From Nitrospirota bacterium (lineage in GTDB: Bacteria; Nitrospirota; Nitrospiria; Nitrospirales; Nitrospiraceae): a DNA stretch of 64,000 nt. Location of the stretch: NCBI GenBank assembly GCA_963701855.1, contig CAVPBK010000006.1, forward strand, positions 64,001-128,000, in the 5' to 3' direction. Below, piece by piece: positions 5,199 to 59,659 of the stretch. How positions within the stretch are numbered: the first letter of the stretch is position 1; each line of letters starts with the position of its first letter. The notes under the pieces were generated by a model. The model had not been told where the DNA came from, made no database searches, and saw nothing but the letters and a program-made list of their open reading frames with translations. Both the position numbers and the translations under genes were made by a program.

Positions 5199-5216
5199 TT
5201 TCTGCTTCGGAGTGCA

Positions 5217-6404: not shown

Positions 6405-6424
6405 CAGCAGAGGACATCGCTCGC

Positions 6425-6580: not shown

Positions 6581-6614
6581 TCGGCCACATCATCATCCAT
6601 CGCCTCGATACACC

Positions 6615-7831: not shown

Positions 7832-8298
7832 AACGTTACATGTATTAATCGGTACTTAATCGGACAGACAAGGTCAGATGAATTCGGGCCTCGAAGGACC
7901 GCTCCCGGCCACTTTGCGACAGTCGCTACGGCAAGCTCCACGCCGGAAAGGTGCCGTTCATTAGAGATGGTGCTCGCTTCGCGCTACGCTTGGCTGGATT
8001 GGGTCTGAGTCTGCTGGGGGAGGGTCGTCCGTTGGCTAATACGCGTGTCGGTGTCCACAAAACCTGCCCAAATGTCTTCCCGTACGTTCTCGAACTCATG
8101 TGACCTAGAACTCGACTCGAACCGTCCAGAAATCAGGAGATTGAGGACAGGTTTAGTCGCAGGACAAGCGGTTTAGGAAAGCGTTGTCACCACCCTACTC
8201 CAGCCTACTCAGACTCACTCAGGCCTACTGCAGCCAAGGTGGTCTTTCCCTGATTTTGTGGACACCTTCCGTGCATAATCAGCGAAGGGAGGTGCCTC

Positions 8299-8580
8299 AT
8301 GGGCCAGCAGCGACGGAGTTTCACGCCAGAGTTTAAGCAGGAAGCCGTGGACTTGTGCCGACGCAGTGGGAAGAGCGAGTGCCAGGTGGCGCGGGAGTTG
8401 GGCATTCCCCAACCGACGTTCAATCGATGGATGCGGCAAGCGGCGGGGGCGCCCCAAGGATCCCACAGCTTTCTGGCGACCGAGGAACTCAAGGTCTTGC
8501 GGCGAGAAGTCGAGCAACTCCGCATGGAGCGCGACATCCTAAAAAAAGCCGTGGCCTTCTTTGCCAAGGAGTCGGGATGA
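8299..8580 (+). CDS. IS3 transposase OrfA (HTH)
   Basis: RRSFTPEFKQEAV...VARELGI...LRREVEQLRMERDILKKAVAFF. A7G slippery site at 8541-8548; RBS GGGAGG. Confidence 0.93.
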   Translation: MGQQRRSFTPEFKQEAVDLCRRSGKSECQVARELGIPQPTFNRWMRQAAGAPQGSHSFLATEELKVLRREVEQLRMERDILKKAVAFFAKESG

Positions 8581-9467: not shown

Positions 9468-9788
9468 TGATCGTCGATCCTGGATCAATGGTGTGCGTCG
9501 ATTTTGCGGCGCGCACGCATGAGATCGCGGTTGGCTTCACATGGAGATGGTCCACACAGAAACCAGTGTCTATAAAATCGGGGGAAGATCAAGGTTTGCG
9601 CTGAACTCGAACTTGGCTGGAGTAGGCTGGAATGAGCTGGAGTGAGTTGGAGTTGAGCACAAAATGAGCACAATTACGATGCCACAACGTAGCGCACGAC
9701 TAACTTCTGCACCCATCTGATTAAGCCCCTTGTCCACAATTTAAGCGGGGCAAAACACGGAATTAATCAAAGGGGTCTTCCCCCCTTC

Positions 9789-10265
9789 TTAACTTTTCCT
9801 TGGCATCACTGGAGCAATCATTTCGGTCGAATCTTCAAGACTGAAGCTCTCTCTAGCCTTGCAATTCAACCCAGAAGTCGCATCGCACTCCAGGTGGAGG
9901 GCCACATAGGTGCCAATCATTCTATAAAGGCTAGCGTGCCAAGCCCCGATCTTCCCGTCAGGTAAACTGAAGCACACACTCCATTTATAGACTCTATGAG
10001 CGCCGATGAACTGTACGAGCTTCAGCTTGTAGACCGGGTCAAAGTGGAATATTCCTTCTTCCGTTGTCCGAGTATCGAGGACCGGGTCATCACAGGTACC
10101 CCCCAGTGATAATGTGACCATCGTGCTCTTCATCGGCTGCCCCTGCTGAATCAGAGTCCCGATTAATTCTGGGGAATATGGGTCTGGGTAAGGAATCGGG
10201 ATACAGCCAGCCACGAGGGAAGAAAACAGGAGAAGAAGAACCCCAATAGTCAACCTGGTTTGCAT
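9789..10265 (-). CDS. Hypothetical lipoprotein (possible carboxypeptidase-regulatory/transthyretin-like fold)
   Basis: Lipobox LVAGC; TRTTEEGIFHF motif; lower GC than the backbone. Confidence 0.6.
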   Translation of the reverse strand: MQTRLTIGVLLLLFSSLVAGCIPIPYPDPYSPELIGTLIQQGQPMKSTMVTLSLGGTCDDPVLDTRTTEEGIFHFDPVYKLKLVQFIGAHRVYKWSVCFSLPDGKIGAWHASLYRMIGTYVALHLECDATSGLNCKARESFSLEDSTEMIAPVMPRKS

Positions 10266-10604
10266 AAGGATTGAATGGCGCTGCCTTGAATTTCGTTTCT
10301 GAAGGGACACACAATTCTTTCTGAACCTATCACAGGAGTAAACGCTCGCCTACGAAATGCACCGCTTTTGACGCAAAATTAGAGTTCTCGTGCCAAACTC
10401 GAATCTTCGAGCCCTAGCTTTTCATACCGTTATTCCAAACAAAATGAAGAATCGCAAAGCATTTGCTGACAAAGACGGCTGGCTTGGGGGTGTCAAAAAC
10501 ATTGTGAAGAACTAGACGCTATCCTTCGGGTTACGTTGAAGATTCATGGTAGCTGTTGAAGAGGTCAAAAAGAACTGATTTTGATCCTGCTGTTTCTCGT
10601 TTGC

Positions 10605-11072
10605 TCAGCTGACACGCGGACTCGACACCATACTGCTTGTGCTCGTTAACCCAGCCCATATCAAATAAATGTTGAAAACGACAAACGTGGCAGCCACACC
10701 CTGTGCACCTGGCCACCCAAAGGGTGTCTCACGAAATATCTCCAGATAGAGTACGCCTATAGGTGTAAGTGGAGCGAGAACATACGTCCATGGAAGGCAT
10801 AATACTAAGCCTAGCAATCCATAAATCAGACCATGCCACAGCATCACGCGTGGCAGAATAGCACCTTCCCTCATCTTCACATATACGATCCCGTAGAAAG
10901 CAATCATCGATAAATTAGGACCAAATCTCCAGGCAACATCAAAGATTCCGCGTACCATCCCTAAAGCATTTCTATACTCTGGAGAACTCAGTGCTAGGAC
11001 GAAATCAAGAGCGGCGAATGCACCCAGACATGCGAACCCAACCCGCACACAACCGATCTTTAGCTTACTCAT
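10605..11072 (-). CDS. Hypothetical multi-TM membrane protein, AT-rich
   Basis: 155-aa ORF with about four hydrophobic segments; AT-rich codons. Confidence 0.6.
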   Translation of the reverse strand: MSKLKIGCVRVGFACLGAFAALDFVLALSSPEYRNALGMVRGIFDVAWRFGPNLSMIAFYGIVYVKMREGAILPRVMLWHGLIYGLLGLVLCLPWTYVLAPLTPIGVLYLEIFRETPFGWPGAQGVAATFVVFNIYLIWAGLTSTSSMVSSPRVS

Positions 11073-11644
11073 CTACATCTTCCCCAACAGAGATTTGAGT
11101 AGGTGCACTGCCTCACGTAACTCCAGAAGCCTCCTACGGTAACCATTGGAATAACGATTATTCCCAACACATGTGTTTTCAAGCCTACCACAAGGCCTGA
11201 AACACGCTGGAGGGAATTGTCTTATTCCGCCTTATGACGTAGGAAGGATGACAGTGGAACTTGAAAGCACTGGTTGAAAGAAATGAAGAGGATTGAAGGT
11301 CAATTTCATTTGTTTTTGGACCAGCATCAGCATAAGTCAAATTCCTTGAGAAATCGACCAACTTTGGGCTGGCATTTTAGATGGGGATTTTGACAAGGGG
11401 GTATTTGGGATTTTCGGGAAGTTGACACCCCGTGGGATCCCGATGGTGCCGTCATTCGATTGAACCACCTGATAGCCGTCGGTCGTGTACTTCTGCTTTG
11501 GGTCGAAAGCGGTCATTGCCTCGGTGACCGGCACGGAAACGGATCCGCAGGGTTATTCGCGGCAGGTGAAAACGCGGCGTGCCGCTGGCGTGCTCGTGGC
11601 GGCGGCCAGGCTCGCCGCGCAAGCCGTCGGTGCGCCACCGGCGT

Positions 11645-12367
11645 TCAGTCTTCGACGCCCACGCCTCTCACGATGAGCACCGCATAGTCCTGCTTCGTGC
11701 AGCCCTCGACCGGAGGCATCGCTCCCCCTGACGCAACTGGAAACGCCGTCTTCTGCGCGTTTGCCGGCGAGCACGAACCACCAACCGCCGCCGGTGTATA
11801 ACGCGCTGAGCGGCAGGCCAAGTGCGTCACATCGTAGAGCGTCGCGCCTTTATCAAGCTCCCAGCGCCTATCACCATTCTTGTCGGCGGGATGAATGGTC
11901 AGCACAGCCGTCACCTCGCGGTTACCCGTGACCAAGTATTTGCCAGGAGGGAGCGGAAAGGTCGGCTGCTCCATAATCAAGCCGTGTTCCTCCAGCCACC
12001 AGTCCGTGCCGTCAAATTTCCAGCGCGCCGGAGCGACGCCACCTGCATCCTTCAACCGTTGATAGTGGTTCAGCTCGACGCCCCGAGGACCCGGGTCCAG
12101 AGGCCACAGACCCCACGATTGCGCGCCGCTCCCGGAGGTCGCACCTGGATCGCCCAACGCCGCGATGAACTGCGTTGATATGCGCTGGAACTTCGTTTGA
12201 CCTCCGCCTTCGGCGTGAACCGGCTGAGCCACGGCGGCTATCGTTACCAGCAAAGCCGTCGCAAGGCATGCGCGGCGAATGAGGCGCTGCGTTCTCCTCG
12301 TGAGCGCCAACACGGCACCTCGCTGTACATGGGTTCGCACCCCGATCGTTCTGAGTTCTGAAATCAT
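11645..12367 (-). CDS. Hypothetical exported protein (Trp/Gly-rich; start uncertain)
   Basis: Signal-like ALLVTIAAVAQPVHA followed by WGLWPLDPGPRG, WWLEEHGLIME and HLACRSARY; GC-rich codon usage. Confidence 0.7.
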   Translation of the reverse strand: MISELRTIGVRTHVQRGAVLALTRRTQRLIRRACLATALLVTIAAVAQPVHAEGGGQTKFQRISTQFIAALGDPGATSGSGAQSWGLWPLDPGPRGVELNHYQRLKDAGGVAPARWKFDGTDWWLEEHGLIMEQPTFPLPPGKYLVTGNREVTAVLTIHPADKNGDRRWELDKGATLYDVTHLACRSARYTPAAVGGSCSPANAQKTAFPVASGGAMPPVEGCTKQDYAVLIVRGVGVED

Positions 12368-12570
12368 CTCTCGACTTTCCTTTCAGGACGGGTAAGCAAC
12401 AACTCGATCACCACAGTGTCCCCAATGGACCGCAAATCTACACCGCGAATGACCGTTTGGGTCGATAGCTGACACTGACTGCCGGCTCGAATCTGAACTA
12501 ATACACGTTAAACGTGAGACGTGTAAGGATTTCCGAGTTCAACACTGCACGTTTCACTTTCTTTTTACGT

Positions 12571-13213
12571 TTACCGCCTCTCGTAGAACAACTCCAGTGC
12601 GGCTGCAAAGCCCTTTAGTACGTCCTTTGCGAAACACGTCCTCAAGCTGTCCGCGTAGCGATCTGACGCCTCCCTCATCGTCTCGTTTGACCACGCCTTG
12701 GGACAATAGCATCTCCGTCGCCACTTCGAGGAGCCGCTGTTTGCGCCCCTCCATCTCAGCCGTGACCAGCTCTTCCATGACCTCCGATGCCCGCTCCTGA
12801 ATTATCTCTTCTTTAAACGTGTCGTACCCTTGATCCGCCACGGTCCGCTCATGAATCACGGCGAGTTCGGCTTTGATCCGCGTCACATTTTTCATCAAGA
12901 CCGCGAATATTTCCTTGCGCCCTTCATCGAAGAGCTTCTTCTCCATCTCGTCGAGGATGACGGCTGGATCTGGCGCTTCATCCCGCGCTGTTTCTTCTCC
13001 CCAATTGAGCCGGTCATAGCTCAGGCGCTTGCCCGGATCGCCGACGACTTCATAGGCGGCATTGATATCACGGATCTTGGCTTCGGCCTGCGTGCTATCG
13101 GGATTGCGGTCAGGATGGTGCTGAAAGACCAGCTTCCTGTAAGCCTTCTTGATCGCATCATCGGACGCGTCGCGCGAAACCCCCAACACTCGGTAGAAGT
13201 CAATTCGTGCCAT
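12571..13213 (-). CDS. DnaJ-domain protein (J-domain only), with a +1 frameshift near the 3' end
   Basis: MARIDFYRVLGV...IKKAYRKL...HPDRN...AYEVVGD. Deleting one base of the run at about 12611 gives the ending KGFAAALELFYERR-stop at 12571. Confidence 0.85.
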
Positions 13214-13259
13214 AGCTGGCGAACTATAGCATGGGGCTTCAGCAGGCTTCACCTTGACT

Positions 13260-14392
13260 CCCTGGCAGAAGCTCCCCAGCCTGTCGCCATCCATTTATTG
13301 TCAGCGAGCAGGCCATCTACGGCGGAACAAATCGGCTGGTACGCGGGATCATCTTTTCAATTTTTCTCATCGGCTAGGCCATCGGCGGAATCACATTCGG
13401 CATCCAGGCCGACCGCTTCGGTCGGACTAAGGTCTTGATCGCGACCATCATCTATGCCGTCTTCATCGGAGCCGCTGCATTATCGGAGACATGGTGGCAC
13501 CTCGCCATCTATCGATTCTTTTCGGCGCTTGGCATCGGGGGTAATGGGCGGCCGGCGTAGCGATCGTCGAGGAAACCTGGCCGGAAAAACGGGCAAAGGC
13601 CGCAGAGATTTTCCAATCCGCCTGAGCTGTCGGGTTCTTTCTGGCCGCCACATTCAACCTTACGCTTAAAGAAACGTACGGATGGCGGGGGCTCTTTCTC
13701 GCCGGCATCCTGCCCGCATTTGTAGCCCTATTTCGTTCGATGGTGGGTAAAGGAACCAGAACGTTGGACTCACGCACAGGAACAACAGACCATCTCTCTC
13801 ACAGCAGTTTTTGAGGGTAACTTACGACGAGGAACCTTGGTGGGTTCGGCCTTAGCCTTCGTGGCTGTAGTTGGCCTCTGGGGTTCGACGAACTGGGCTC
13901 CGACACTCACCCGCGAGCTGCCCGACCTGAAGGGACAGGATCCCGCTATCCTGACAAAATACGTGAGCTACGCCATTATGGCTCTGAACGCGGGAGCGAT
14001 TTTCGGCTATCTGGGCTTCGGCCGCGGCCTGTCTTCTCCTTCATGTGCGTGGGCAGTTTCGTGATGCTCCCGATTACCTTTCTCGTTCCATCCAGCTACA
14101 GTGGTGTGCTTATGCTGCTGCCGATCCTCGGATTCTTTAACAACGGCATCTTTAGCGGGCTTCCCATTTATCTGCCCGAACTCTATCCGACCGGACTTCG
14201 TGCCACCGGCGCCGGATTTTGCTTCACAGCGGGACGTATCCTGGCTTCCGCCTAGCCATTCCTGACAGATTGGCTTGTCACAACTTTCGACACCTTTGGG
14301 CGAGCCACCAGCACTGTGGCATTGATCTATCCGGCAGGATTTGCGGTCTTAATCTTTGCACCGGGGACAGGGGCAAACTACTGCCGGAATAA
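13260..14392 (+). pseudogene. Degraded MFS transporter
   Basis: Fragments ADRFGRTKVL, GIGG*WAAG...ETWPEKRAKA, QSA*AVGFFLAA, YGWRGLF, YLPELYPTGLRATGAGFCF. Several in-frame stops and frameshifts; 5' end missing. Confidence 0.85.
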
Positions 14393-47334: not shown

Positions 47335-48321
47335 TCAATGGACGTCTTGACCAGTCCTGAAAAAATCAATGATCGCCTTATTGTTTCCCGGCCATTCAGG
47401 ATGCGTTCCCGTTCCTTCGCAGTAGCGTGTTGCGACATTGTTCTTACACCCCCTGTACGTTACACAGCCCTCAGCGTCTTTTACAAGACTTGTAGCATCG
47501 CAACCATTACAGGCAGCCCACCATTGTATTGCTTCGTTACCATATCCTGGGAACAGGGTGTCATGACTACTGTGCATAACCAAAACGGGAAGCGGGTTGG
47601 GACATTGATAGGCTTTCAAGTCCTCAGCCCTGATACCCGCCGCACTCGGAGCAATCGCCGCTGGAATATGTTTGGTGCCATTGATAAAGGCTATGGCCAT
47701 AGCCGTAGTCCCGCCATCAGAATGACCGGTGAGAAAAATCCGTTTGTTGTCGATACACCATTTCTTTTCGATCAGTCCAGGTATTTCAGCAAGCTCCTCG
47801 ATCGTTTTGGGAGTCATTGTGTGGTGATCGGCATAGGCCACAATAAAACCTGCCGCCGTCGCCTCTTGCGTAAGATGCACAAAGTCTTCTGACTCATATC
47901 GATTTGTCCGCGCCGGCGCATAGACCATAAGTAACGGATGGGCAATGTTTGAATTGTAATTGACCGGCGTTTTAACCATATAGCGAATACCGGCTGATGT
48001 CTTTTCATCATTGCTGGCACCTGCATGACCGGGTTTTGTTCCTGGGTCGCAGTACTCTGTATCATTGTTGACTGTATACAAAGCCTCCCCGAGCATTTTG
48101 CCACGATTAACGGCTTCAGTATCATTCCTTCCAGCATATCGAATCGCACCCGCGCCGATAACACCCATCAGCAATACGCCTATTGCTACGGCAACAATAG
48201 TTGTTCGGTTGAGCTCTTTCTTCCCAAAGCGCACCCACTCCGGCTTCACGATACCGATAACTAACAGGGCGACCGAAAGGACAATCGTCACACTGAAGAT
48301 CATTGGAAACATTGCGTTCAT
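47335..48321 (-). CDS. Membrane-anchored alpha/beta-hydrolase (PHB depolymerase/LpqC-like esterase), AT-rich
   Basis: GHSDG nucleophile elbow, HSSHD, WAACNGC, THPEWP; two N-terminal TM helices. Confidence 0.8.
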   Translation of the reverse strand: MNAMFPMIFSVTIVLSVALLVIGIVKPEWVRFGKKELNRTTIVAVAIGVLLMGVIGAGAIRYAGRNDTEAVNRGKMLGEALYTVNNDTEYCDPGTKPGHAGASNDEKTSAGIRYMVKTPVNYNSNIAHPLLMVYAPARTNRYESEDFVHLTQEATAAGFIVAYADHHTMTPKTIEELAEIPGLIEKKWCIDNKRIFLTGHSDGGTTAMAIAFINGTKHIPAAIAPSAAGIRAEDLKAYQCPNPLPVLVMHSSHDTLFPGYGNEAIQWWAACNGCDATSLVKDAEGCVTYRGCKNNVATRYCEGTGTHPEWPGNNKAIIDFFRTGQDVH

Positions 48322-48659
48322 CAGTTGTACTCGCTTCTTTACGTATGAGCGGCTTCGGGGTCAGCAACTGTCCTACCGGTCAAGCCTGCCAACCCACATC
48401 ATCCACGAAGGTTTACTACAACCGCCGATACGACGCTGCGACAAGTCTGACGGCAGGCTGCGCTCACCGCAGTCAGACGTCAGAGCCAGTCCCCTGGCCT
48501 CCGCGCGCCTGTCGCGTGTGACGACTGCGCGATTTCTGGGCAAGCCGTCATGAAGATTTTGATTCGTGGCGGATGTGACCGCAGAGAACTCACAAGCCGC
48601 GGCTGATGTGTTCGATCACCTAACATGTGGCGTCGTGTCGGATTGTGTCATCAGCTGTA

Positions 48660-49001
48660 TCAACGTCTCTTCAACAAGGCCCGAAACTCTTCCGGTATGG
48701 GCATGGACCTAAACGGATGAACATACGCACCGCCGGTATTCCCCACCGGCACCCAAATGCGTGAAAATAGCAACGCACCGATAATCCTCGCCACTTGACC
48801 GCTCATCTCTATTGGGTCCTGGCGTCTCCAGCCGACCTTCAGCATCCACCAATGCGCGTTCGCATGCGCGAATGCGAACGATTGGCTCAGGATATGCGCG
48901 CGTTCTAGGTGATAAAACGCCCTGTCCAGGTTATTGCCAGAGTAGTGCTCGGCTGCAGCATGCATCTCCTTCTCGTAGGCTTGTCTTCGTTCTGCGTGCA
49001 T
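48660..49001 (-). CDS. DUF3703-family protein
   Basis: HLERAHILSQ, HWWML, PVGNTGGA, SMPIP. Confidence 0.88.
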   Translation of the reverse strand: MHAERRQAYEKEMHAAAEHYSGNNLDRAFYHLERAHILSQSFAFAHANAHWWMLKVGWRRQDPIEMSGQVARIIGALLFSRIWVPVGNTGGAYVHPFRSMPIPEEFRALLKRR

Positions 49002-49129
49002 TCTTCTACCCCTGGCAATCAACCAGACATTGATGCCGAGAAAACTTCGGGCTCATTTACGAGCCGACTCTCGCGAATTACTCAGCCTTGGAAGCGTTCA
49101 AGGCACGGCTCAGAAACGTCTGTTTTGAA

Positions 49130-49585
49130 TCATTTTGTCGTGTCCGATGCCTGATGTTTTTCGGGTCGGATAAGATTTGGCTTTCCCTCTTCACCTATGA
49201 AGACGACCAATAATCTCAATGGTACTTCTCCTAAATTCTTTGCGCTATGCACGATGTTTACAACCTCCAGAAACCCGGTCCCGGCCTTAAATGTTTGTCG
49301 AGCGCCATCCTCAAATTCCACCGTCATTATTCCCTCAAGGACATGGACATAGGTTGGGGCCGAATGTATGTGGCGACCGTTTTCCTTTCCCGGTTGGATT
49401 TCGACCAGGACCGAAGCCATTTCTGCATTCTCAGTTTTGGGGTATTCAATCTTTTGGCCGCCGATCGTTGAAGAACTCTTCATCACAGCGGTGACTGTGA
49501 CATCTTGTGGCTCCGCCCACGCTGAGACGGTCGTTTGGACAAAGACCGTGATCAAGAAGATCGAGAAAATTGTTCTCATCGTCAT
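49130..49585 (-). CDS. Exported cupin-domain protein
   Basis: Signal peptide AWA; HIHSAP...VLEG...E...HSAKN cupin motifs; RBS GGAGG. Confidence 0.88.
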   Translation of the reverse strand: MTMRTIFSIFLITVFVQTTVSAWAEPQDVTVTAVMKSSSTIGGQKIEYPKTENAEMASVLVEIQPGKENGRHIHSAPTYVHVLEGIMTVEFEDGARQTFKAGTGFLEVVNIVHSAKNLGEVPLRLLVVFIGEEGKPNLIRPEKHQASDTTK

Positions 49586-49619
49586 ACCTCCATTGCCATG
49601 TACTTTCGAACCGGGGAGA

Positions 49620-49812
49620 GGATATGTCCAACGCTCTTGAAAGCGGCAGTAAGACATCACTCAACGTCACTATCTCAATGAGCCGAGACTCCCCTTCAAC
49701 AACGGGAATGGTACCACAGTGACGGCACATCATTTTCATTACGGCCGACCGAACCGTATCTGTCTTCTTGGACGTCACGAGACCAGTTGACATGCTCGTG
49801 GACAATAGCCAC
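49620..49812 (-). pseudogene. CBS-domain protein remnant
   Basis: RBS CAGGAGG plus GTG GCT ATT GTC CAC GAG, then a frame change to MSTGLVT...AVMKMMCRHCGTIPVV...LIEIVTLSDVL (one CBS repeat). Confidence 0.65.
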
Positions 49813-49891
49813 CTCCTGCTCACAATGCCACGACGACCGGGCCAGGTCACCGGCTTCCGACGAACGTTCGGCTCGTTCACGAGCAAAACAA

Positions 49892-49929
49892 CACGGGCGA
49901 CCCCGCACCATAGTAGGAGGTCGCCCGTG
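49892..49929 (-). terminator. Probable intrinsic terminator downstream of amoC
   Basis: 11-bp stem CACGGGCGACC / GGTCGCCCGTG followed on the minus strand by TTGTTTT. Confidence 0.65.
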
Positions 49930-50009
49930 GATGGCACTGAGGACACCAACAGCCTCTTTCTTCTAACCGGCCAGGTTTGTGGCCAGCTCACAGAAGCTGA
50001 CTGAAGGAT

Positions 50010-50810
50010 TTAGTACGGGATCACGTGCAAGCAGTCCTTGCTCTCGTTGTTCCAGACCACATCGCACAGGTTCGACATGCGCGCCACGATCTGCGCTGCC
50101 ACGCCGCCCGTGCCACCGAACAACCCGCACCAGCCCAGGGTCACAAACCCCCAGTGCAACGGCGCGGCAAAGAGTTCATCGACAAACCAGAACGCATGCC
50201 CCCACTCGTTGAGTCCCACGTTGGGCAGAATCATCATCGGCCCCACAACCGCCCCCACCAAGGGGAACGAGACCGCCTTGCTGAACTGCGGCAGTCGGGT
50301 CATGGCATAGAGATACCAGGATACGCCACAGGTTATGTACAACGGGAAGGTGAAGTAGAAGGCGATGATATGGCTCGCAGTAAAGCTCGTATCGCGGATG
50401 ATCACCTGGTGCCATGACGCATCCTGCTCAAGGGTGTAGCTCCCTGCCCAGTATACGCCAAACACATACACCGCGCCCCACATCATGAAGTAAAAATACC
50501 GCTTGAGTTCCGTCTTGGGATCCACGTTCGCCACGTTGCGATCCCGTGTGCTCCAAATCCACCCTATACAACTGGCCGAGAAGATGATGTTGGAAATCAC
50601 GTTAAACCGCCACAGGCCCATCCAGACGGTCTCGAACTCCGGCGTCATGGAGTCCAAACCGTGGGAATAGCCGAAGACGCGCTGAAACACGACCTCGGCA
50701 CCCACTGCCGTCAACATTGCGAACCAACCAATCTTAAGAGGCCTGGAGTCGTACCAGAGCGCCATATCATATCCGAGGTTGCTCTCACCGAATGTAGCTG
50801 TTTTTGCCAT
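50010..50810 (-). CDS. amoC: Ammonia monooxygenase subunit C, stand-alone copy
   Basis: [20 protein letters not shown] and [12 protein letters not shown]...PLHWGF AmoC/PmoC motifs; GLDSMTPEF and ELKRYFY; RBS GGGAGG. No amoA/amoB adjacent. Confidence 0.97.
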
Positions 50811-50954
50811 GTTCTTAACCTCCCTTCATATACTTAAGGACCACCTTTGTGGGTTGGTCCTGGACGTCTCTTCGAAAGATCTTGCCCACTATTTCCACCT
50901 CCTCCTTTCTATGAGATCCACACGGGCAACCGTCAATCCATGGCGACGTAAATG

Positions 50955-50970
50955 AGCAATTCACATTCCA
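50955..50970 (-). promoter_or_regulatory. Putative sigma54 promoter for amoC
   Basis: Minus strand TGGAATGTGAATTGCT has GG-N10-GC spacing with TTGCT. Confidence 0.7.
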
Positions 50971-51077
50971 GCAGAGATCTCGCATGACTTCGCCATCGAT
51001 GATGCTGAAAATCATCGGAGTGAGCGATTTCGTTCGAGAATTTCTGCAGCAAACAAAATGACGTGCCGAAGACGAGC

Positions 51078-51112
51078 TGCTGAATTATCAGCACGGTGCC
51101 GAAAAATCAGCT
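51078..51112. promoter_or_regulatory. Tandem palindromic enhancer-like sites upstream of amoC
   Basis: TGCTGAATTATCAGCA (51078-51093) and TGCCGAAAAATCAGCT (51097-51112). Confidence 0.7.
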
Positions 51113-51569
51113 TTCACTCGGAACACTCACAGGGGCTATGTGAGAAGCCAGGCAATGAATGGCGAGAGGTATCGAGCTTCTGTATTTAGGCCGGAAAAGT
51201 TTTCCGTTTCATACCAGGACCGATTGACAGGGTGGATGAACGAACACAACGTGGCGTGACGGCCGTTCTTATTCTATGTGCCGGTGCATGACGTCCAAGA
51301 TAGAGGCTTACGACACCCGTTGATAGTCAGGCTAGTGATTTTTGACGAGCATCGGGCGTATTATTGATCTCCTGTGATATGATCGAGACGCTACTATCTC
51401 CGTCGGTTGAGTGAGGTGCGCATTCGGCGACTCTCTGTTGAAGACTTGCCAGGAGCTTATGCTTCGCGCAATGACGGGACGAGAGAGAGTTCGCCAACAG
51501 GGCGACGGCCAGCCCAGCATCCCCTTTTGCTGGTCGTGACGGAACCTGCGTCTATTCAGGAGAGGACAT

Positions 51570-53580
51570 ATGAAACCCAACCTTCACAATGAAACCACTC
51601 AGTGGTCGGCCACGCCCGATGACCTCTCTCATTCCGATATTGAAGACCGTACAGGGGCCGAGACATTGCTTGCCGGAGAAAATCGCCTACTCGAGATGCT
51701 CGCCACCGGATGTACGCTCACGGAATTTCTTGACGCTTTGTGCCGACTCATCGAAGAGAGCGCGAGCGGAACTCTCTGTGGGATTGTGCTGGTAGATTCT
51801 ATCGGCAATCGGCTACAGCATGGTGCAGCGCCCAGCCTTCCTCTCAGCTACAACGAGTCGATCCATGGCAGACCGGTGAATCTCCTATCAGGTCCCTGCG
51901 CCATGGCGGTCTCTCTCAAAGAACAAGTGATTGCCGCCGATGTCGCGTCGGACACAAGATGGGATACATACAAATGGCGTACTCTGGCAATGGCACATGG
52001 GCTGCGGGCCTGTTGGTCCACGCCTATCTTGTCATCCAATGACACAGTATTGGGCGCCTTCGCAATCTACTCGCGCGAACCTGGTAGCCCTAGTGCGTAC
52101 CATCAACACCTCATCGGACAGATCACGCATCTGGCGACGGTAGCTATTGAGCATAAGCATAGGGAGGAGAAGCTCCGTCAAGACGAACGGGAGCTTCGGC
52201 GCATCACCGACGCCATCGATCAACGCATTGCTGTCCACGGGCCTGATGGAAAAATACTCTATGCGAACCGAGTGATGCTCGAATATAGCGGCCTGAGCAT
52301 GGAAGACGTCATGGCGGATGACTTTCGCGCACGGCTCGCTCATCCTGATGATTTGGAGCGATCACGGGTCGAGCGCCAGCAGGGGATCGAACGCGGAACC
52401 CCGTTTGAACTTGAGTTGCGCGCTCGCCGCAAGGACGGACAGCACCGCTGGTTTCTCGTCCGCTATAACCCGTTCCGGGACGATGAGGGACGGATCATTC
52501 GCTGGTATTCGACCGGAACCGACATCGACGACCGTAAACGAGACGAAGAGAGGACTCAAAAAGAAAACTTGGCATTGCGCGAAGAGATCGATCACTCTTC
52601 GATGTTCGAGGAAATCGTCGGTTCGTCGGAACGTCATCCGCAACATACTGAAGCAAGTCACCAAAGTGGCACCGTCGGATTCCACGGTACTCGTGCTGGG
52701 TGAGACCGGGACGGGGAAGGAGCTTATTGCCCGGGCCATTCACAAGCGCTCGAAACGGTCGTCCCGGGCGTTTATTACCGTCAATTGCGCGGCGATCCCC
52801 GCGTCGCTCATTGCCTCTGAGCTGTTCGGACACGAGAAAGGCGCGTTTACGGGTGCGATGCAACGGCGTCTCGGGCGATTTGAACTAGCCGATGGCGGGA
52901 CGATCTTCCTTGACGAAATCGGGGACCTACCGGCCGAGACTCAAATCGCTCTCCTGAGAGTCCTGCAAGAGGGAGAAATTGAACGGGTCGGCGGCAGCCA
53001 ATCGATTTCTGTGGACGTGCGCGTGCTGGCCGCCACGAACCGCGACCTGAAGGAGGCCATGGCGGCAGGCACATTTCGTCAGGATCTCTTTTACCGGCTG
53101 AATGTCTTCCCAATTCAGGTTCCCGCGTTACGCGAACGGATAGACGACATCCCGTTACTCGTCAGCTACCTGATTGAGCGCTATGCGAAGAGGGCCGGGA
53201 AACAGATTAGGAACATACAGAAAGAAACCCTGGAGTTATTTCAAGCATACGACTGGCCCGGCAACATTCGCGAGCTACAGAATGTCATCCAGCGAGCTAT
53301 CGTGCTGTGCGAGAACGAAACATTTTCCGTCGACGAGACCTGGCTGAAACGGGAGAAGCGCCGGCTGTCGGGGTCGGTGATTCCCTTAGGCGCCACGCTC
53401 GCCGAGCACGAAAAAGAAATTATTGAAGCTGCGTTGACGGATTGCGGGGGGCAGGTTAGCGGCCCAACCGGCGCCGCGGCCAAGCTCGGACTCCCAAGGC
53501 AGACACTTGAGTCGAAAATCACGGCCCTGGGAATTAACAAGCATCGGTTCAAGACCCGACAAGCCGACCATGCACGATAA
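51570..53580 (+). CDS. Sigma54 enhancer-binding protein, GAF-PAS-AAA+-HTH (FhlA-like), split by a +1 insertion
   Basis: GAF ([10 protein letters not shown]), PAS/PAC (HPDD...RRKDG...WF), [30 protein letters not shown]. Removing C52632 restores [17 protein letters not shown]. Confidence 0.9.
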
Positions 53581-53736
53581 AAAGACCGTACGTTGTTTGC
53601 TCGCCAACTGTAAGAGCCGGTCTCTCGCGAATTGTTCCTTCTGGTTTAGACAGCTCCTCTGATTTCGTCCCCTCCCACCGCCTTCAACCCAATCGGTTCG
53701 GAGAATTAGAACGTCCCCTAATATTTCTGCCTCATT

Positions 53737-53770
53737 TGCCGATCATTCAGCAAATGCTGAAATTTCGGCA
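53737..53770. promoter_or_regulatory. Tandem palindromic enhancer-like sites upstream of the ftsH cluster
   Basis: TGCCGATCATTCAGCA (53737-53752) and TGCTGAAATTTCGGCA (53755-53770). Confidence 0.75.
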
Positions 53771-53812
53771 GTTGCTTTCACGCCAAGTACAAGCATCTCA
53801 ATCGTTTACAAC

Positions 53813-53828
53813 TGGCCTCTTCATTGCA
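53813..53828 (+). promoter_or_regulatory. Putative sigma54 promoter
   Basis: TGGCCTCTTCATTGCA has GG-N10-GC spacing, 35 bp before the ATG at 53864. Confidence 0.78.
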
Positions 53829-53863
53829 CTAGTTTTATATCGTTCAGGTCGCAGAGGTCACAG

Positions 53864-54130
53864 ATGACAATAAAGTTTGAAAAAGAAACCCGCCGTCTCA
53901 AGACGATGATTTGTCTGAGCGGTCGGCTGCAAGCGAGACATCTGGAGGAATTGAAGAGGCAAATGGAAGGAACTCGGTCGCGAATTGCGCTGGACCTCAA
54001 CGGAGTGACGCTCGTGGATGTCGAGATAATTCGATTTCTGAACGCCTGTGAGAAATGCGGTGTCGAGCTCCTCAATTGCTGGCCGTACATACGGGAGTGG
54101 ATGATCTGTGAGAAAGGCAGGGAAGGATAA
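53864..54130 (+). CDS. Small STAS-like protein
   Basis: LSGRLQ...IALDLNGVTLVD...FL...GVELLNC..YIREW. Confidence 0.75.
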   Translation: MTIKFEKETRRLKTMICLSGRLQARHLEELKRQMEGTRSRIALDLNGVTLVDVEIIRFLNACEKCGVELLNCWPYIREWMICEKGREG

Positions 54131-54183
54131 GGCGATGCAGTTCAGACAACCACAATCAGCCCATATAAAAGGAGGGAATTCCA

Positions 54184-54300
54184 ATGCCAAATATTACTGT
54201 TCAAAATGGAGATCACACCATGAAGCACATCATTTTCTTCATTCTTGGTGCCGTGATTCTTATTGGTCTGGTACTGGCTACTGGTCTCCTCAGACCCTAA
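54184..54300 (+). CDS. Small single-TM peptide (38 aa, or 26 aa from ATG 54220)
   Basis: Strong RBS AAGGAGG before ATG 54184; MPNITVQNGDHTMKHIIFFILGAVILIGLVLATGLLRP-stop. Below the ORF-track cutoff. Confidence 0.55.
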   Translation: MPNITVQNGDHTMKHIIFFILGAVILIGLVLATGLLRP

Positions 54301-54466
54301 AACCGAATGCTACGGCTTTGGCGGATGCCCAGACCATGCGACAGATTCCTTTGTCTCAGCCCGTCAGCAAGAAGACCAAAGAGAACACGTCAAACAGAAG
54401 CGTGAGCGCAACAACCCCAATCCTTCGATCCACCTAGGATCGTGACAGAGAGAGGAACTAATTGCG

Positions 54467-56287
54467 ATGCCAGTGAATAAAAAAATATCCTTTTCGGTCC
54501 TGTGTGTCTTTCTCACGATTGGGGCAGTCATGTTCGTGCACAATTTCATCACGCCCATGCAGATGCTTGAAGAGCTTCCGTATAGCGAATTTAAGGCGCT
54601 CCTGGCGGACGGCAATGTGGCGGAGGTCACGGTCACTCGTCAGTCATTGCTCGGGAAACTGAAGCCGGAAGAAGGATCAAAAGAACCGAAGCTGTTTACG
54701 ACTGTCCGGGTTGAAGATCCTGATTTAGTCAAGGAACTCAACGTACGCAACGTCAAGTTCACCGGCATGATTGAGAATACGTTCTTGCGAGATATCATGT
54801 GGTGGGTCATTCCTGCGCTAATCTTTGGCGGTATCTGGTTTTTTGTGATTCGGCGCCTCGGTCAGGGGCTTGGACAGGGTCAAAAAGGGTTCATGACCGT
54901 GGGGAAGTCGAAGGCGAAGATCTATGCGGAGAAGGATACGAAAGTGACTTTCGCGGATGTAGCCGGCGTGGAGGAGGCGAAGGAAGAACTGGGCGAGGTG
55001 ATTGATTTTCTCAAGACGCCGGAAAAATTCACGCGTCTCGGAGGAAAGATTCCGAAAGGCATCCTGCTCGTCGGTCCGCCTGGAACCGGCAAGACGCTCC
55101 TGGCTCGCGCTGTGGCAGGAGAGGCAGGCGTGACGTTTTTCAGCATCAGCGGGTCCGAGTTTGTGGAAATGTTTGTGGGAGTGGGGGCCTCCCGCGTGCG
55201 AGATCTGTTCGAGCAGGCGAAGATCAAGGCACCCTGTATTATCTTCATCGACGAACTGGATGCGTTGGGAAAAGCCCGTGGGGCAGGACCCATGGCGCAT
55301 GAGGAGCGTGAACAAACCCTGAATCAGTTGCTGGTCGAGATGGACGGCTTTGATCCCCGCATCGCCGTCATTCTGATGGCGGCGACCAATCGGCCTGAAA
55401 TCTTGGATCCTGCACTGTTGCGGCCAGGCCGGTTCGACAGGCAAGTCTTGGTCGATCGCCCGGATAAGATCGACCGTCTGGCCATCTTGCGCGTTCATGC
55501 CAAGAAGGTAACCCTCGGTCTCGATGCGGACCTCGAGGTGATCGCTGGGATGACCCCAGGATTCTCAGGCGCCGACCTCGCCAATATCGTCAATGAAGCA
55601 ACGCTCTTGGCTGTGCGCCGGAATAAAGGGCAGGTGGGTCTCCCAGAATTGCAGGAAGCGGTGGAGCGGGTCGTCGCCGGGTTGGAGAAGAAAAACCGAG
55701 TCCTCAACAAGATGGAGAAGGAACGCGTCGCCTACCATGAAGTGGGCCACGCCTTGGTAGCGTTGTCGTTTCCTGGCTCAGACCCGATACAGAAGATCTC
55801 CATCATTCCTCGCGGGATTGCTGCCTTGGGTTATACCCTGCAGCTTCCGACGGAGGATCGCTTTCTGATGGCCAAGACGGAGTTGGAAAACAAAATTGCC
55901 GTCTTACTCGGAGGGCGGAATGCGGAAGAATTGATCTTCGGCGAGGCCTCCACGGGCGCACAGAACGACTTGGTCAGGGCCACGGACATTGCCAAGAGCA
56001 TGGTCAAATCCTACGGGATGAGCGAAAAGCTAGGCACCGTTACCCTGAATCGTGAACGCCAGCCTCTCATCATGCAGATTCAGGCGCCTCAGGAAAAAGG
56101 CGACTACTCTGAGGAGACCGCCCGCGAGATCGACTGTGAAGTGCGCCGTATCATCGACGAGCAATACGATCGCGTGAGATGGCTCTTAGCTGAAAAGAAA
56201 CGCGCACTCGTAGAAGGAGCAAGAGCCCTGCTCGATCGCGAGGTAATCAGTGGTAGTGAGCTTAAAGTCATCATGGACAATCACTGA
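54467..56287 (+). CDS. ftsH: ATP-dependent zinc metalloprotease FtsH
   Basis: Two TM helices, [52 protein letters not shown]. Confidence 0.97.
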
Positions 56288-56390
56288 AATGCAACCGCAC
56301 ATATGCAGATGCTCGAAATCCTAGCAGGAAGAACAGCGGGAACGCCGCGAAGTGTCAGACGCAAGACCCCATCAAGAAAGGAGACATGTA

Positions 56391-56633
56391 ATGAGGTGCG
56401 CACGCTGTGATGGATTGATGGTGCATGAGACGTTTGAAGACCTTATAGGACTCGGGTCAGGTGACCATGAGTATGCCGGATGGCGCTGCATCAACTGTGG
56501 GGCGATTGTCGATCCCGTGATTCCTGCACATCAATGTCTCACGTCGCAGACAGCAGCGACTAATCCGGCATTGCACGCTGTCTCCTTAGTCTCAAGGGCC
56601 AGACCCAGCAGAAGCAGACGATCAACATGGTGA
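56391..56633 (+). CDS. Small CxxC...CxxC zinc-ribbon protein
   Basis: RBS AGGAG; MRCARCDGLM...GWRCINCGAIVDPVI. Confidence 0.8.
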   Translation: MRCARCDGLMVHETFEDLIGLGSGDHEYAGWRCINCGAIVDPVIPAHQCLTSQTAATNPALHAVSLVSRARPSRSRRSTW

Positions 56634-56732
56634 TCCAATGATACCCGATAACCACGCAGAGATACGGAGACCGGTTTCTTCTACTCGTTTGGATGGCGCC
56701 GCAGCTCTGCACGGCGTCTCCCGCTGAGGTGG

Positions 56733-56765
56733 GCAGGCCTCTCCTTACACCCCGGAGGGGCCTGT
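56733..56765 (+). terminator. GC-rich hairpin, possible terminator or processing site
   Basis: GCAGGCCTCTCC / GGAGGGGCCTGT, weak U tract. Confidence 0.45.
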
Positions 56766-56882
56766 CTCTTCAGTGAACAATCAGAAGCGGATGACAAGAA
56801 TGAAGGAGCGGGACTGTCGGAAGTGATGAGGAGGGCAGCATGGACCAGAATTTAGCAAGGTCCCAAAACAGGGAGGTTGGCC

Positions 56883-57464
56883 ATGATTAAGCAAATGACA
56901 CGAGCAGGTTCTATGGTGCTCCTTCTTGTTGCCACGCTGCACCTCGGCTTAGCCGCTGCGCATGGAGGAGCGGATTTGGAATTAGACCCTTGCGTGCGCT
57001 GGGTCGGTGAAAGCGCAGTGCATTTCAGTACCTACCAGCCGCAGTATGAACTGAAAGCTCAATACTGCACAGACATTCCCAAGACAGGCGAGACCTTCCT
57101 GGTCGTGGACCTCGTGGACCCGGCATTGCGTAACGTGCCGGTCGGCATGCGAATCGTGAAGGGGAACGGAAACAATGAGGCAGAAGTTCAGACGGTGGCA
57201 GACTGGCGTCCAAGCCATCACCCGGCCGGAGTAATCAGTGGAGAAACCAATCTGGATGAGGGTCTGTACAGAGTCATCATTACAGCGGAGGGGCGGAATC
57301 CTTTGCGCTATCAGTATCTCTTGCGTGTACAGATGATCGATTATCAGAAGTTGGTGAATTCCGTGGTGGTACCACTGCTCGGCGTACTGTTATGCGCCTG
57401 GCTGGGGTACAAGCTCCTACGATCGAAGTGGCTGCGGAATCGGTGGGCAGGCGTCCGTTCGTAG
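56883..57464 (+). CDS. AmoD/AmoE (PmoD-family) periplasmic protein with C-terminal membrane anchor
   Basis: Signal peptide then HGG; DPC...VHFSTYQP...YCTDIPKTGETFLVVDLVDPALRNVPVGMRI; C-terminal TM helix. Matches the amo/pmo orf4/orf5 pattern from recall. Confidence 0.8.
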   Translation: MIKQMTRAGSMVLLLVATLHLGLAAAHGGADLELDPCVRWVGESAVHFSTYQPQYELKAQYCTDIPKTGETFLVVDLVDPALRNVPVGMRIVKGNGNNEAEVQTVADWRPSHHPAGVISGETNLDEGLYRVIITAEGRNPLRYQYLLRVQMIDYQKLVNSVVVPLLGVLLCAWLGYKLLRSKWLRNRWAGVRS

Positions 57465-57524
57465 GAAGCCGGGCGCTCCAGCGCGCGAGCACATGGTTCA
57501 CCATTTCAGAGTAGGAGGCTGACA

Positions 57525-57764
57525 ATGGCTATGCAATTTCTGAAACTTTCTGGCCTGCGCTTCGTGACATCGCAAACCGACACACCTTTGAAAAAGAAAG
57601 GCAAGATTCCCTGGTATGTCTACTTTATCGGAGCCGCAATCTATACCGCTCTTGCCGGTTGGCTGTTCGCGGAATCGTCTCCTCTGGCATGGATTTGCCT
57701 CATCAGCGCGCCGGTGGGGTTTTTCTATGCCTGGGGAGCCTGGAAAAAAGAGAAACAAGGCTAG
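57525..57764 (+). CDS. Small two-TM membrane protein
   Basis: RBS AGGAGG; two hydrophobic helices. Confidence 0.65.
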   Translation: MAMQFLKLSGLRFVTSQTDTPLKKKGKIPWYVYFIGAAIYTALAGWLFAESSPLAWICLISAPVGFFYAWGAWKKEKQG

Positions 57765-57942
57765 AGGTACAGTCTAAACCCTGTGCGACAACGAGCCCGA
57801 CTATGGTGCGATGGACAGAATCCACTCCTTAATAAGCCCGGTTGCCGAGCTGAGGTCGCTAGAGAGCACTGGATCGAAAAAAGACGGCCAATGGCCAACT
57901 GCTCCAATCAAGCGGAGACGTCATGGATGAGGAGGAAATCTG

Positions 57943-58593
57943 ATGGAATCATTGATGGACACTCTTGTCGACCGTCGGGCAAACAACAATGCGGGTCTTA
58001 TACCGTTCCCCGCTCCAACCTATGCGCAAGCTCGCTGGTTCTTCGGCGGTTTGGTACGCGCCATGTATCGACTCGAGGTGGTCGGCGCCGAGCGCCTCCC
58101 CATCACCGGGCCTGTGGTGTTCGCACCGAATCACGACTCGTTGCTCGACGGAATCGTCCTCGGAGCAGCGATCTCAAGGGAACTCCGTTTCCTCGCGAAG
58201 GCAGAGCTCTGGCAGTCCCGACTGCTTGGGTGGATGCTCGACGGGCTCGGCGCGATCGGGATTACGCGTGGTTGCGGCGACCACCTCGCTCTCGCTCGGA
58301 TGCGGCAGGCGCTCAACGCAGGACAGGCTGTTGCAATCTTCCCGCAAGGCGCCGTTCGCGGCGACCGCGTGTGGCACCGGGGTGCCGCGCGCATGGCGCT
58401 CGTGACGGGCGCGCCTCTTGTGCCGGTCCGCCTTGTCGGCACAGCACGGGCTCTCTCACGGGACAGAATCGGCTTCCCGCGGTTGCGAGTCATCTTCGGA
58501 GAGCCTATCAAAGTCATGCGGGAGCAGGAAGAGCCGATTGCGGCGACAAAGCTGACCGAGCGGTTACGAATCGCGGTCGAATCGCTGACCTAG
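57943..58593 (+). CDS. Lysophospholipid acyltransferase (PlsC family)
   Basis: NHDSLLD (HX4D), FLAKAEL, IFPQG, VPV. Confidence 0.9.
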   Translation: MESLMDTLVDRRANNNAGLIPFPAPTYAQARWFFGGLVRAMYRLEVVGAERLPITGPVVFAPNHDSLLDGIVLGAAISRELRFLAKAELWQSRLLGWMLDGLGAIGITRGCGDHLALARMRQALNAGQAVAIFPQGAVRGDRVWHRGAARMALVTGAPLVPVRLVGTARALSRDRIGFPRLRVIFGEPIKVMREQEEPIAATKLTERLRIAVESLT

Positions 58594-58701
58594 TCCACCT
58601 CTCATATTCTGAGCATACGTCTCCCGCAAGTACGAGAACGCCTCAGCCCAGATCCACACCCTCCCTCATCCATCAATCATAAGAGAGTGGTCAGATTGTC
58701 G

Positions 58702-58760
58702 TTCACTGCGCGCATCGAACGGGCACATTCTTATCGTGCGCGTTCTGCGAGCAGGAAGGA
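58702..58760. repeat. Family-B repeat, direct copy of 42675-42733
   Basis: 57/59 identity. Confidence 0.92.
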
Positions 58761-58975
58761 CATCTGGCCGCGCCCGCTCTTCTAACCATCACGAACAGAT
58801 CCTAACGACGACCTGCGATAGAAAAGACACTCCTCCCTTCTTTTACTCGAATGCTGCCCGTTCCTATCCGCTCTCGCTCATCCTCGCACGCCGCATCTGC
58901 GACCTCTCAAGACTCCACCTACATGACCGATAGCACACACATCCATTCACAGAATCAATCGAACACGAGGGCTCC

Positions 58976-59659
58976 ATGCTCTGCTGGTCACCATCGATAC
59001 AAACGAGCGCCTTCCTCACGGCATTCTTGCTGGCGATCTCACTCTATGAAGGGCAGGTATACGGCGCCCCGCGGGAGCAATTAATTCCCATCTTGGGCGT
59101 AACCACGGGCCAAAATCAGGTCGGCACGGTCTCCTATGTGAGGGTTTCGTTCGACGAACGGCAAGACCAGGCAGGACTGATGCTGCACTTCCACCCGACA
59201 CCGGGACGATTCTCGCACATGGCCCAGACTTCAATCGAACAGGCGATCAGACGGAGCGCGCGATCCCTGGGCATCTCCACCGACTCTTGGACGGTCAAAC
59301 TCTCCATTCCCTATGAAGGCATGACGATCTACGGGGACAGTGTGTCAGCGATGGTGAGCCTCAGCGTCGCGGCCATGGCACAAGGCAAGATGGTACCGAC
59401 CGGCCACGTACTGACGGGAACGATCACTCCCGAAGGTGAGATCGGCCCGGTCGGATCTGTCCCGTTAAAAATACAGGCGGCAAGGGCAGCGAAACTCCGC
59501 CGAGTCGTGGTATCCAAGCAGACACCTGCTACCGAGAGTACAGGGAGCCTTCCGGTCTCGATCCAGGTATCGACGGTGCAATCGGTCCCAGAAGCCTTGG
59601 ATGCCCTCACCGACTCATCGCCCGCGAATTCAGCTATCACCGAAGGCGAACCACGGTAA
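58976..59659 (+). CDS. Exported Lon-type (S16) protease domain without ATPase
   Basis: N-terminal hydrophobic signal; YGDSVSA (Ser), TGTITPEGEIGPVG, PLKIQAA (Lys). Confidence 0.8.
   Translation: MLCWSPSIQTSAFLTAFLLAISLYEGQVYGAPREQLIPILGVTTGQNQVGTVSYVRVSFDERQDQAGLMLHFHPTPGRFSHMAQTSIEQAIRRSARSLGISTDSWTVKLSIPYEGMTIYGDSVSAMVSLSVAAMAQGKMVPTGHVLTGTITPEGEIGPVGSVPLKIQAARAAKLRRVVVSKQTPATESTGSLPVSIQVSTVQSVPEALDALTDSSPANSAITEGEPR

Follow-up and report, generated by a model that had tools for sequence, protein, structure and literature searches.

A predicted sigma-54 regulon around a stand-alone amoC in one lineage of comammox Nitrospira, with a possible role in the biogenesis and maintenance of ammonia monooxygenase

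The DNA considered here is a stretch of 64,000 nt from a Nitrospirota bacterium (assembly GCA_963701855.1, contig CAVPBK010000006.1, positions 64,001-128,000 of the forward strand), hereafter the window, in which a stand-alone copy of amoC, a gene of ammonia monooxygenase (AMO), lies divergent from a sigma-54 activator and a cluster of genes for membrane and periplasmic proteins. The amoC gene (50010-50810, minus strand, 266 aa) is preceded by a putative short upstream open reading frame (ORF) in its leader (50815-50889, minus), a predicted sigma-54 type -24/-12 promoter (TGGAATGTGAATTGCT, 50955-50970, minus) and a tandem predicted enhancer made of two 16-bp palindromes (51078-51112), and is followed by a terminator-like hairpin with a UUGUUUUG tract (49892-49929, minus). 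The activator, with GAF, PAS, AAA+ and helix-turn-helix (HTH) domains, is read in the other direction (51570-53580, plus), its frame being broken at 52630. Behind it stand a second tandem predicted enhancer, again of two 16-bp palindromes (53737-53770), a second predicted -24/-12 promoter (TGGCCTCTTCATTGCA, 53813-53828, plus) and, all on the plus strand, genes for a STAS-like protein of 88 aa (53864-54130), a hydrophobic single-helix peptide of 38 aa (54184-54300), an FtsH2-type membrane protease (54467-56287), a CxxC...CxxC zinc-ribbon protein (56352-56633, likely start 56391) in which the four cysteines are readable, a PmoD/AmoD-family protein (56877-57464) and, as the operon's last gene, a protein of 79 aa with two predicted transmembrane (TM) helices (57525-57764). 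A first-pass annotation of this DNA had proposed that a single signal induces a spare AmoC, a dedicated FtsH and a copper-handling protein in a cycle that replaces and remetallates AMO. Its gene positions were all borne out by the ORF list and family profile searches, and both GG-N10-GC promoters and the four TGCYGA-N4-TCRGCW sites are present where it had read them.

The enhancer motif stands out in the window, where TGCYGA-N4-TCRGCW gives seven strand matches, corresponding to four sites (51078, 51097, 53737 and 53755), against an expectation of 0.15; none of 100 shuffled sequences reached seven. In the whole genome (4.30 Mb) there are 11 exact sites, and the genome-wide scan that the first-pass annotation had suggested finds exact tandem pairs at this locus only. 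When one mismatch per site and a spacing of 18-19 bp are allowed, two further tandem pairs appear, both at a paralogous regulon described below. The box TGG-N8-TTGC, which has a genome-wide density of 0.17 per kb, lies correctly oriented downstream of all four tandem pairs in the genome; the seven single exact sites elsewhere have no sigma-54 box within 300 bp and were not counted as targets. The looser GG-N10-GC pattern is about as common in the window as chance predicts (5 occurrences against 4.5), and the promoter calls therefore depend on where the boxes lie and on their conservation. Before amoC the palindromes start 19 bp apart, and their centres precede the predicted start by about 140 and 159 bp; before the operon they start 18 bp apart, and their centres precede the predicted start by about 94 and 76 bp.

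Conservation was followed through 27 further loci around activator orthologs taken from related genomes. The tandem pair lies 5' of the STAS-like gene in 22 of the 22 loci having that gene. Where amoC adjoins the activator, in 20 loci, 19 have the pair 5' of amoC and one, a rearranged locus, does not. In alignments the enhancer pairs and the -24/-12 boxes form conserved blocks amid variable intergenic DNA, and the operon promoter reads CTGG(C/T)CTCTTC(A/G)TTGCA in all seven aligned loci. A second set, drawn from the same collection and overlapping the 27 loci, hence not independent of them, comprised 78 amoC starts in species-representative genomes. Tandem sites were found at 18 of these, each with TGG-N8-TTGC at 144-161 nt before the start codon, while among the remaining 60 none had tandem sites and two had the box, at 370 and 404 nt. 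A sigma-70 promoter scan found none in either intergenic region at the locus, and rpoN is present in the genome (C4:154263-154745). On the operon side, the spacer from the enhancer to the -24 box also contains a conserved TCAA-N4-TTA stretch (53796-53812), which we take to resemble a site for IHF. Sequence and position thus point to sigma-54 promoters with upstream activator sites at both targets, conserved across related loci.

The activator is read in two frames, of which the first (51570-52703) encodes the GAF and PAS domains and the second (52318-53580) the AAA+ domain, lid and HTH, with matches to Sigma54_activat (PF00158, 1.6e-72), AAA_lid_14 and HTH_8; the GAFTGA loop and a Walker A motif, GETGTGKE, are readable in its translation. 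FhlA is its best match among the NCBIfam models, but identity with FhlA was rejected, as NF011958, whose cut-off is 830 bits, gives 382 in a match confined to the AAA+/HTH part; the cut-offs for NifA and NorR are likewise failed. The nearest solved chains to the PAS domain are LOV domains (E about 1e-4). LOV domains carry a conserved flavin-binding cysteine motif in the PAS core, and a light-sensor reading was set aside because the aligned stretch has no cysteine. According to the available text of Camejo et al. (2017; PMC5596200), an 'FhlA' occurs in all comammox genomes without its regulon, and we infer that some of these 'FhlA' proteins are the activator described here.

The break in the activator gene comes from an extra A at 52630 (GGACG becoming GGAACG) relative to four orthologs, which splits the gene between PAS and AAA+. 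A real and fixed frameshift would have told against the first-pass annotation. The lesion is not fixed, because near-identical contigs from four metagenomes, each of a different study, do not have the additional A; one of these contigs, of 276 nt, differs from the window in one letter and the absent A only. The extra A is therefore either an assembly error or a strain-specific lesion, two alternatives that are indistinguishable here. That the circuit is dead in this genome, with the activator a pseudogene and both sigma-54 promoters silent, would account for the split, and comparable damage is found elsewhere: G018 (L005) has an independent extra A further on than that of the window, and G014 (L008) has a rearranged activator, in pieces, beside duplicated enhancer and amoC fragments. 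However, besides the testimony of the metagenomes, an open frame of 658-712 aa is kept by 13 of the 16 orthologs of the single-PAS type (81-93% identical), about 679 aa being usual among the orthologs and the gene being intact at 669 aa in G011 and G015, and all target genes in the window are intact, so that a dead circuit seems to us improbable.

The distribution of the activator was examined in 251 genomes of the family, with presence called at E <= 1e-80 for the activator and E <= 1e-20 for amoC. The activator was found in 25 of them, namely 23 of the 50 genomes of the window's genus (the window's own, G000, included) and two of the 49 of one sister genus, and amoC in 64. Of the activator genomes, 23 carry amoC at this threshold and the remaining two have amoC fragments at contig edges beside the activator. 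A tree of the activators shows two clades, with two and with one PAS domain, and both types occur together in one genome. The two-PAS clade holds seven rows, none with FtsH, and the one-PAS clade 12 with FtsH and five without, plus two sister-genus genes without the module. The conserved linkage expected by the first-pass annotation thus holds, in many genomes, for the activator and its two outputs with shared sites; it does not hold for FtsH as a constant member (12 of 21). The regulatory architecture is real, conserved and unpublished, and is tied to AMO by its distribution and its targets. We consider it moderately probable that the locus forms a sigma-54 regulon devoted to AMO within a single lineage of comammox Nitrospira, serving as a circuit for AMO biogenesis and maintenance.

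The locus copy of amoC is recognized by Pfam AmoC (6e-104), NF041641 (AmoC_BACT; 337 bits, cut-off 319) and TIGR03078 (331 bits, cut-off 281), and is one of four in the genome, 89-93% identical to the others. The hairpin directly downstream has a minimum free energy of -31.1 kcal/mol (z = -3.13; one of 200 shuffles folds equally well). It is not listed by a simple terminator scan, and an Rfam scan of 48000-59000 gave no match at E <= 0.1; nevertheless, the terminator-like hairpin and its U tract suggest that this amoC is monocistronic. The leader ORF has 24 codons from a GTG, a strong AGGAGG, and an end 4 nt before the amoC start; locus alignment shows its Shine-Dalgarno sequence and much of the peptide conserved in six of seven loci, with ATG as the start in the relatives and a truncated form in L009. 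The main amoCAB of the genome has a TTGACA-type promoter region and no sigma-54 box, and an IS1595-family transposase lies between it and a PmoD/CopC/CopD cluster (L002, G000:C5:104000-120000, 6488-7408). Beyond the terminator-like hairpin, downstream of the locus amoC, are genes for a secreted cupin and a DUF3703 protein (48660-49660, minus); both recur 3' of amoC in L026, L034, L041 and L043, and the cupin alone in L094.

With the two-PAS type of activator, the linked amoC is in some cases the first gene of amoCAB. In G010 the predicted sigma-54 promoter heads amoC-amoA-amoB, that amoA being the only one found in the genome. These observations bear on whether the locus instead serves as an isoform switch, in which an AmoC variant and its partners alter the properties of AMO under, for example, low oxygen or low ammonia. 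PAS and GAF domains are typical of redox and small-molecule sensing, the AmoC tree places 11 of the 13 copies linked to the activator together on one side, and the module has its own PmoD variant, with alanine for methionine conserved in 18 orthologs. However, the 89-93% identity of the copies, the weak support for their separation (65/95) and the case of G010, where no amoCAB operon was found beyond the one that starts with the linked amoC, so that there is nothing to switch from, make a switch quite improbable. The tree is also too poorly resolved for the activator-linked AmoC to be treated as a separate orthologous group, a candidate grouping that was rejected.

The small proteins of the operon are conserved to different degrees. 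The STAS-like protein scores 23.0 bits with STAS_2, below the cut-off of 29.2, although alignment shows its orthologs to be 70-90% identical; its nearest atlas clusters, 88-aa 'MlaB/STAS' proteins of which 10% of members have STAS_2, are a lead only. The first-pass annotation had seen a TM peptide as a 109-aa ORF (54108-54437). A peptide does exist, but that ORF was rejected as a gene, as conservation switches frame within it and the conserved product is the 38-aa peptide, found in 21 further loci (27 copies in 22 loci including the window) with a mean column identity of 73% and tandem duplication in several relatives. A predicted complex of this peptide with AmoC scored 0.00 in a run made without controls, which speaks neither for nor against binding. 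The zinc-ribbon family is seen mainly in Nitrospirota and has 13 paralogous matches in the genome.

The PmoD-like protein matches PmoD itself (PDB 6CPD, E = 2.3e-8), and has a signal peptide, a periplasmic domain with invariant C39 and C64 and a histidine, and a C-terminal TM helix. Its signal peptide ends in an invariant AAA-HG, where cleavage could leave an N-terminal histidine. The closest paralog (66% identity) heads the main amo/copCD cluster and has the motif Cx7MxH. Elsewhere, where a single amoC stands without the activator, a PmoD-like gene often comes next (L056, L058, L063, L074, L078, L108, L116 and L119), and in L108 (6001-7900) amoC, a PmoD-like gene and a gene for a two-helix protein form a compact group on one strand.

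The FtsH of the window has FtsH_ext, AAA and Peptidase_M41 domains, with Walker A, Walker B and HEVGH readable, and scores 783 bits with TIGR01241 (cut-off 600). Two types of FtsH occur in relatives: the housekeeping FtsH, which shares about 50% identity with that of the window, and FtsH2, which shares 83-86%. In the tree the module copies form a clade inside FtsH2 (support 100/99) and are not orthologs of the housekeeping protein, from which a long branch separates them; the question raised by the first-pass annotation, whether this FtsH is a paralog separate from the housekeeping copy, was thereby answered in the affirmative. PF01434 has one match in the genome, which might suggest that the window's FtsH is the only, hence the housekeeping, copy, but this was rejected as an effect of the assembly. 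The single M41 gene reflects assembly gaps, because the housekeeping ftsH is missing together with all seven neighbours seen in a relative, and contig C1 ends shortly after the neighbours of the native FtsH2, VIT1 and a phosphorylase (208073-210406 of 210578, 172 bp from the end). The housekeeping copy and the native FtsH2 probably both fell into such gaps. In genomes without amoC, FtsH2 adjoins CopD-like and MlaE-STAS or VIT1 genes. In the nine modules without FtsH, the gene for the 38-aa peptide abuts the zinc-ribbon gene. G178 (L031) has FtsH in two frames, and G148 (L027) a partial FtsH duplicate. In L126 (5995-8829), a clade-A-type metagenome-assembled genome, amoC is followed after 196 nt by an ftsH of the housekeeping type in the same orientation, 76% identical to the genus's housekeeping copy, the AmoC of L126 being of the 76% type. 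Band_7/SPFH proteins are known partners of FtsH, and one is encoded among the genes upstream of the activator in L028 (7166-8083, minus) and L033 (4998-5855, minus), modules without amoC in which no enhancer pair was found on the activator's Band_7/SPFH side.

On the directly observed footing of gene content, conserved sites and promoters, linkage and FtsH phylogeny, activator binding, co-induction, a signal and each step of maintenance can be proposed as follows. An activator dimer would bind each 16-bp palindrome (TGCYGA-N4-TCRGCA), two per promoter, and in response to a cytoplasmic signal would remodel sigma-54 RNA polymerase at the two divergent -24/-12 promoters. From the first would come AmoC, encoded by a monocistronic copy here and within a whole amoCAB in some relatives. 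From the second would come the STAS-like protein, the 38-aa TM peptide, the zinc-ribbon protein, the anchored periplasmic PmoD-family protein and the two-helix membrane protein and, in about half of the modules, the FtsH2-type protease, its gene inserted between those for the peptide and the zinc-ribbon protein. Fresh AmoC would thus be supplied together with accessory or assembly factors, and FtsH, where present, would clear unassembled or damaged subunits. A regulon for AMO biogenesis and maintenance is favoured by two independent adjacencies of a C subunit and ftsH, in Methylocystis (as described in the available text of PMC3794950) and in L126, and by the PmoD-like genes that follow other amoC singletons with or without a two-TM protein. 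A stronger version, in which the circuit is an AMO turnover system, the bacterial equivalent of photosystem II D1 repair, whose activator senses loss of AMO function, inducing AmoC and docking helices while FtsH2 removes damaged AmoC, is rather unlikely; the 38-aa peptide, the two-helix protein and the PmoD variant may in that case dock as assembly or stabilising helices.

Several observations weigh against an AMO biogenesis and maintenance circuit. The module is missing in nine of the 30 amoC-bearing genomes of the genus and in 31 of the 33 of the sister genus, so that AMO does not need it. FtsH is present in 12 of the 21 readable modules and absent from nine, four more being unreadable to the end; it is patchy in one activator clade and absent from the other, and non-comammox Nitrospira also carry FtsH2, in another context. 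In acid-exposed Nitrosospira, amoC went down and ftsH up, according to the available text of PMC13687032. Among the RNA runs screened, none shared more than 0.09 of the sequence words of the stretch. The same predicted promoter heads amoCAB in two of 18 loci, a placement that fits general control of AMO expression as well as it fits repair. The locus AmoC is hardly divergent from its paralogs, the AmoC tree separates the linked copies only weakly, with two of the 13 elsewhere, and the activator is frameshifted in GCA_963701855.1. The PmoD-like protein has Cx7AxH, not Cx7MxH, in 18 rows, namely those of the window and of 17 loci with orthologs, as well as in one duplicate of the window locus, and the methionine of Cx7MxHxnC is necessary for the CuA site of PmoD (Fisher et al., 2018; PMC6189053, available text), so that a CuA site is not expected with alanine in its place. 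Finally, near-identical sites stand at paralogous zinc-ribbon and PmoD-like genes and at STAS-like and HlyD genes around a TetR/RND efflux cluster, and in two sister-genus genomes a homologous activator faces a tautomerase/aldehyde dehydrogenase operon; both contexts allow a reading as an envelope or metal stress response.

In the paralogous regulon (L001, G000:C6:1076000-1090000, 2628-13471), the sigma-54 activator has 864 aa and three GAF domains. Behind its gene come two palindromes in tandem, CTGGAACACGAGTTGCC, and genes for a zinc-ribbon protein, a PmoD-like protein (64% identical) and a methyltransferase. The STAS-like gene and HlyD are preceded by another such pair with its box, and TetR, HlyD and AcrB genes lie between. 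The sister-genus loci (L038 and L039) have a PAS-GAF-PAS activator with a sensor about 75% identical, divergent from genes for a 141-aa protein of unknown family, a tautomerase_3 and an aldehyde dehydrogenase. These loci have palindrome-like sites but no STAS/PmoD module. In a regulon for envelope or copper stress, the small proteins would handle metal or membrane stress and amoC would be a later passenger. The efflux-type genes of the paralogous system, with its near-identical tandem sites and sigma-54 boxes, the detoxification-type genes faced by the sister-genus activator, the CopD-like and MlaE-STAS neighbours of native Nitrospira FtsH2 and the three loci that keep the operon without amoC (L028, L032 and L033) all agree with such a role. 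It is nevertheless unlikely, in that the activator was found in amoC-bearing genomes only (25 of 25), 19 of the loci retrieved with it have amoC or amoCAB on its divergent side, and PmoD-family genes are otherwise tied to amo/pmo clusters, as far as the available text of PMC6189053 goes.

The absence of FtsH from nine modules and the missing CuA methionine also tell against the replace-and-remetallate cycle of the first-pass annotation, a repair triggered by damage in which inactivation of AMO would be sensed, FtsH would extract AmoC, the spare copy would replace it and the PmoD-like protein would reload copper, much as in D1 turnover. The module FtsH does form a dedicated clade; ftsH adjoins a monocistronic pmoC in Methylocystis, where quality control was suggested (PMC3794950), recovery of Nitrosomonas europaea from starvation, heat and oxidative stress induces its amoC3 (PMC13058606), and amoC transcripts of Nitrospira inopinata rise under inhibition by allylthiourea (ATU; bioRxiv 10.64898/2026.09.02.748776), each of these three as reported in the text available. 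However, two of the three steps are unsupported, and remetallation has no direct support, because Cx7AxH stands in place of Cx7MxH. Whole amoCAB operons lie behind the promoter in two loci, and the AmoC copy is not divergent. The ATU organism, moreover, has the AmoC type of about 76% identity and belongs to a genus mostly without the activator (31 of 33 amoC-bearing genomes). Such a specific repair cycle is possible, but doubtful.

The proposed AMO regulon resembles NifA/FhlA/NorR-type systems in the GAF and PAS sensor, the AAA+ domain with GAFTGA, the Fis-type HTH, the tandem palindromic upstream sites and the -24/-12 promoters; it differs from them in its targets, amoC or amoCAB and small membrane or periplasmic proteins. 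FtsH-dependent turnover of the photosystem II D1 protein, a damage-prone subunit of a membrane enzyme, and PspF, the sigma-54 activator of the phage-shock membrane-stress operon, offer a similar logic only, with no sequence or regulatory homology to the locus. Its protein of the PmoD family shares with PmoD (6CPD) the signal peptide, the cupredoxin-like periplasmic domain, the two invariant cysteines and histidine and the C-terminal TM helix, and is set apart from CuA-forming PmoD/AmoD by Cx7AxH in place of Cx7MxH. The nearest parallel to the amoC copy is amoC3 of N. europaea, also an extra copy outside amoCAB with its own regulation and described in the available text of a 2026 review as a stress and recovery copy, but divergent (67.5% identity) where the locus copy is 89-93% identical to its paralogs (PMC13058606). 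Control also differs from that of N. europaea amoC3, the locus copy having a predicted sigma-54 promoter and an adjacent activator. The promoter of amoC3 is, we presume, of the sigma-E type.

The first-pass annotation knew of no description of such a module, and the sigma-54 architecture is indeed unpublished, but a link between pmoC and ftsH had been noted before. In two Methylocystis strains, sp. SC2 and Rockwell, Dam et al. (2013; PMC3794950) noted a pmoC that is monocistronic and has ftsH next to it, and offered quality control as a speculation. As at the locus described here, ftsH neighbours a C-subunit gene that stands apart from the rest of its copper membrane monooxygenase; that case, however, belongs to another phylum, and the available text describes no activator, enhancer, PmoD-like protein or small-protein set. 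The FtsH of the present locus is, by contrast, optional and encoded in a separate operon with shared sites. Searches for literature on a link of amoC to sigma-54, to rpoN or to enhancer-binding proteins, and on a link of comammox to FtsH, returned nothing relevant among the listings and passages covered.

In the literature found, as far as its available text goes, no transcriptional regulator of AMO is described for comammox Nitrospira. The locus provides a candidate activator with its likely binding site and two promoters, and a short list of candidate AMO accessory proteins: the 38-aa helix, the two-helix protein, the PmoD variant, the zinc-ribbon protein and FtsH. This list matters because recent AMO structures show extra helices that are unassigned, as in the available text of a 2026 preprint on N. 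inopinata AMO (bioRxiv 10.64898/2026.09.02.748776). The older idea that an orphan C subunit and FtsH cooperate thereby gains a testable regulatory framework.

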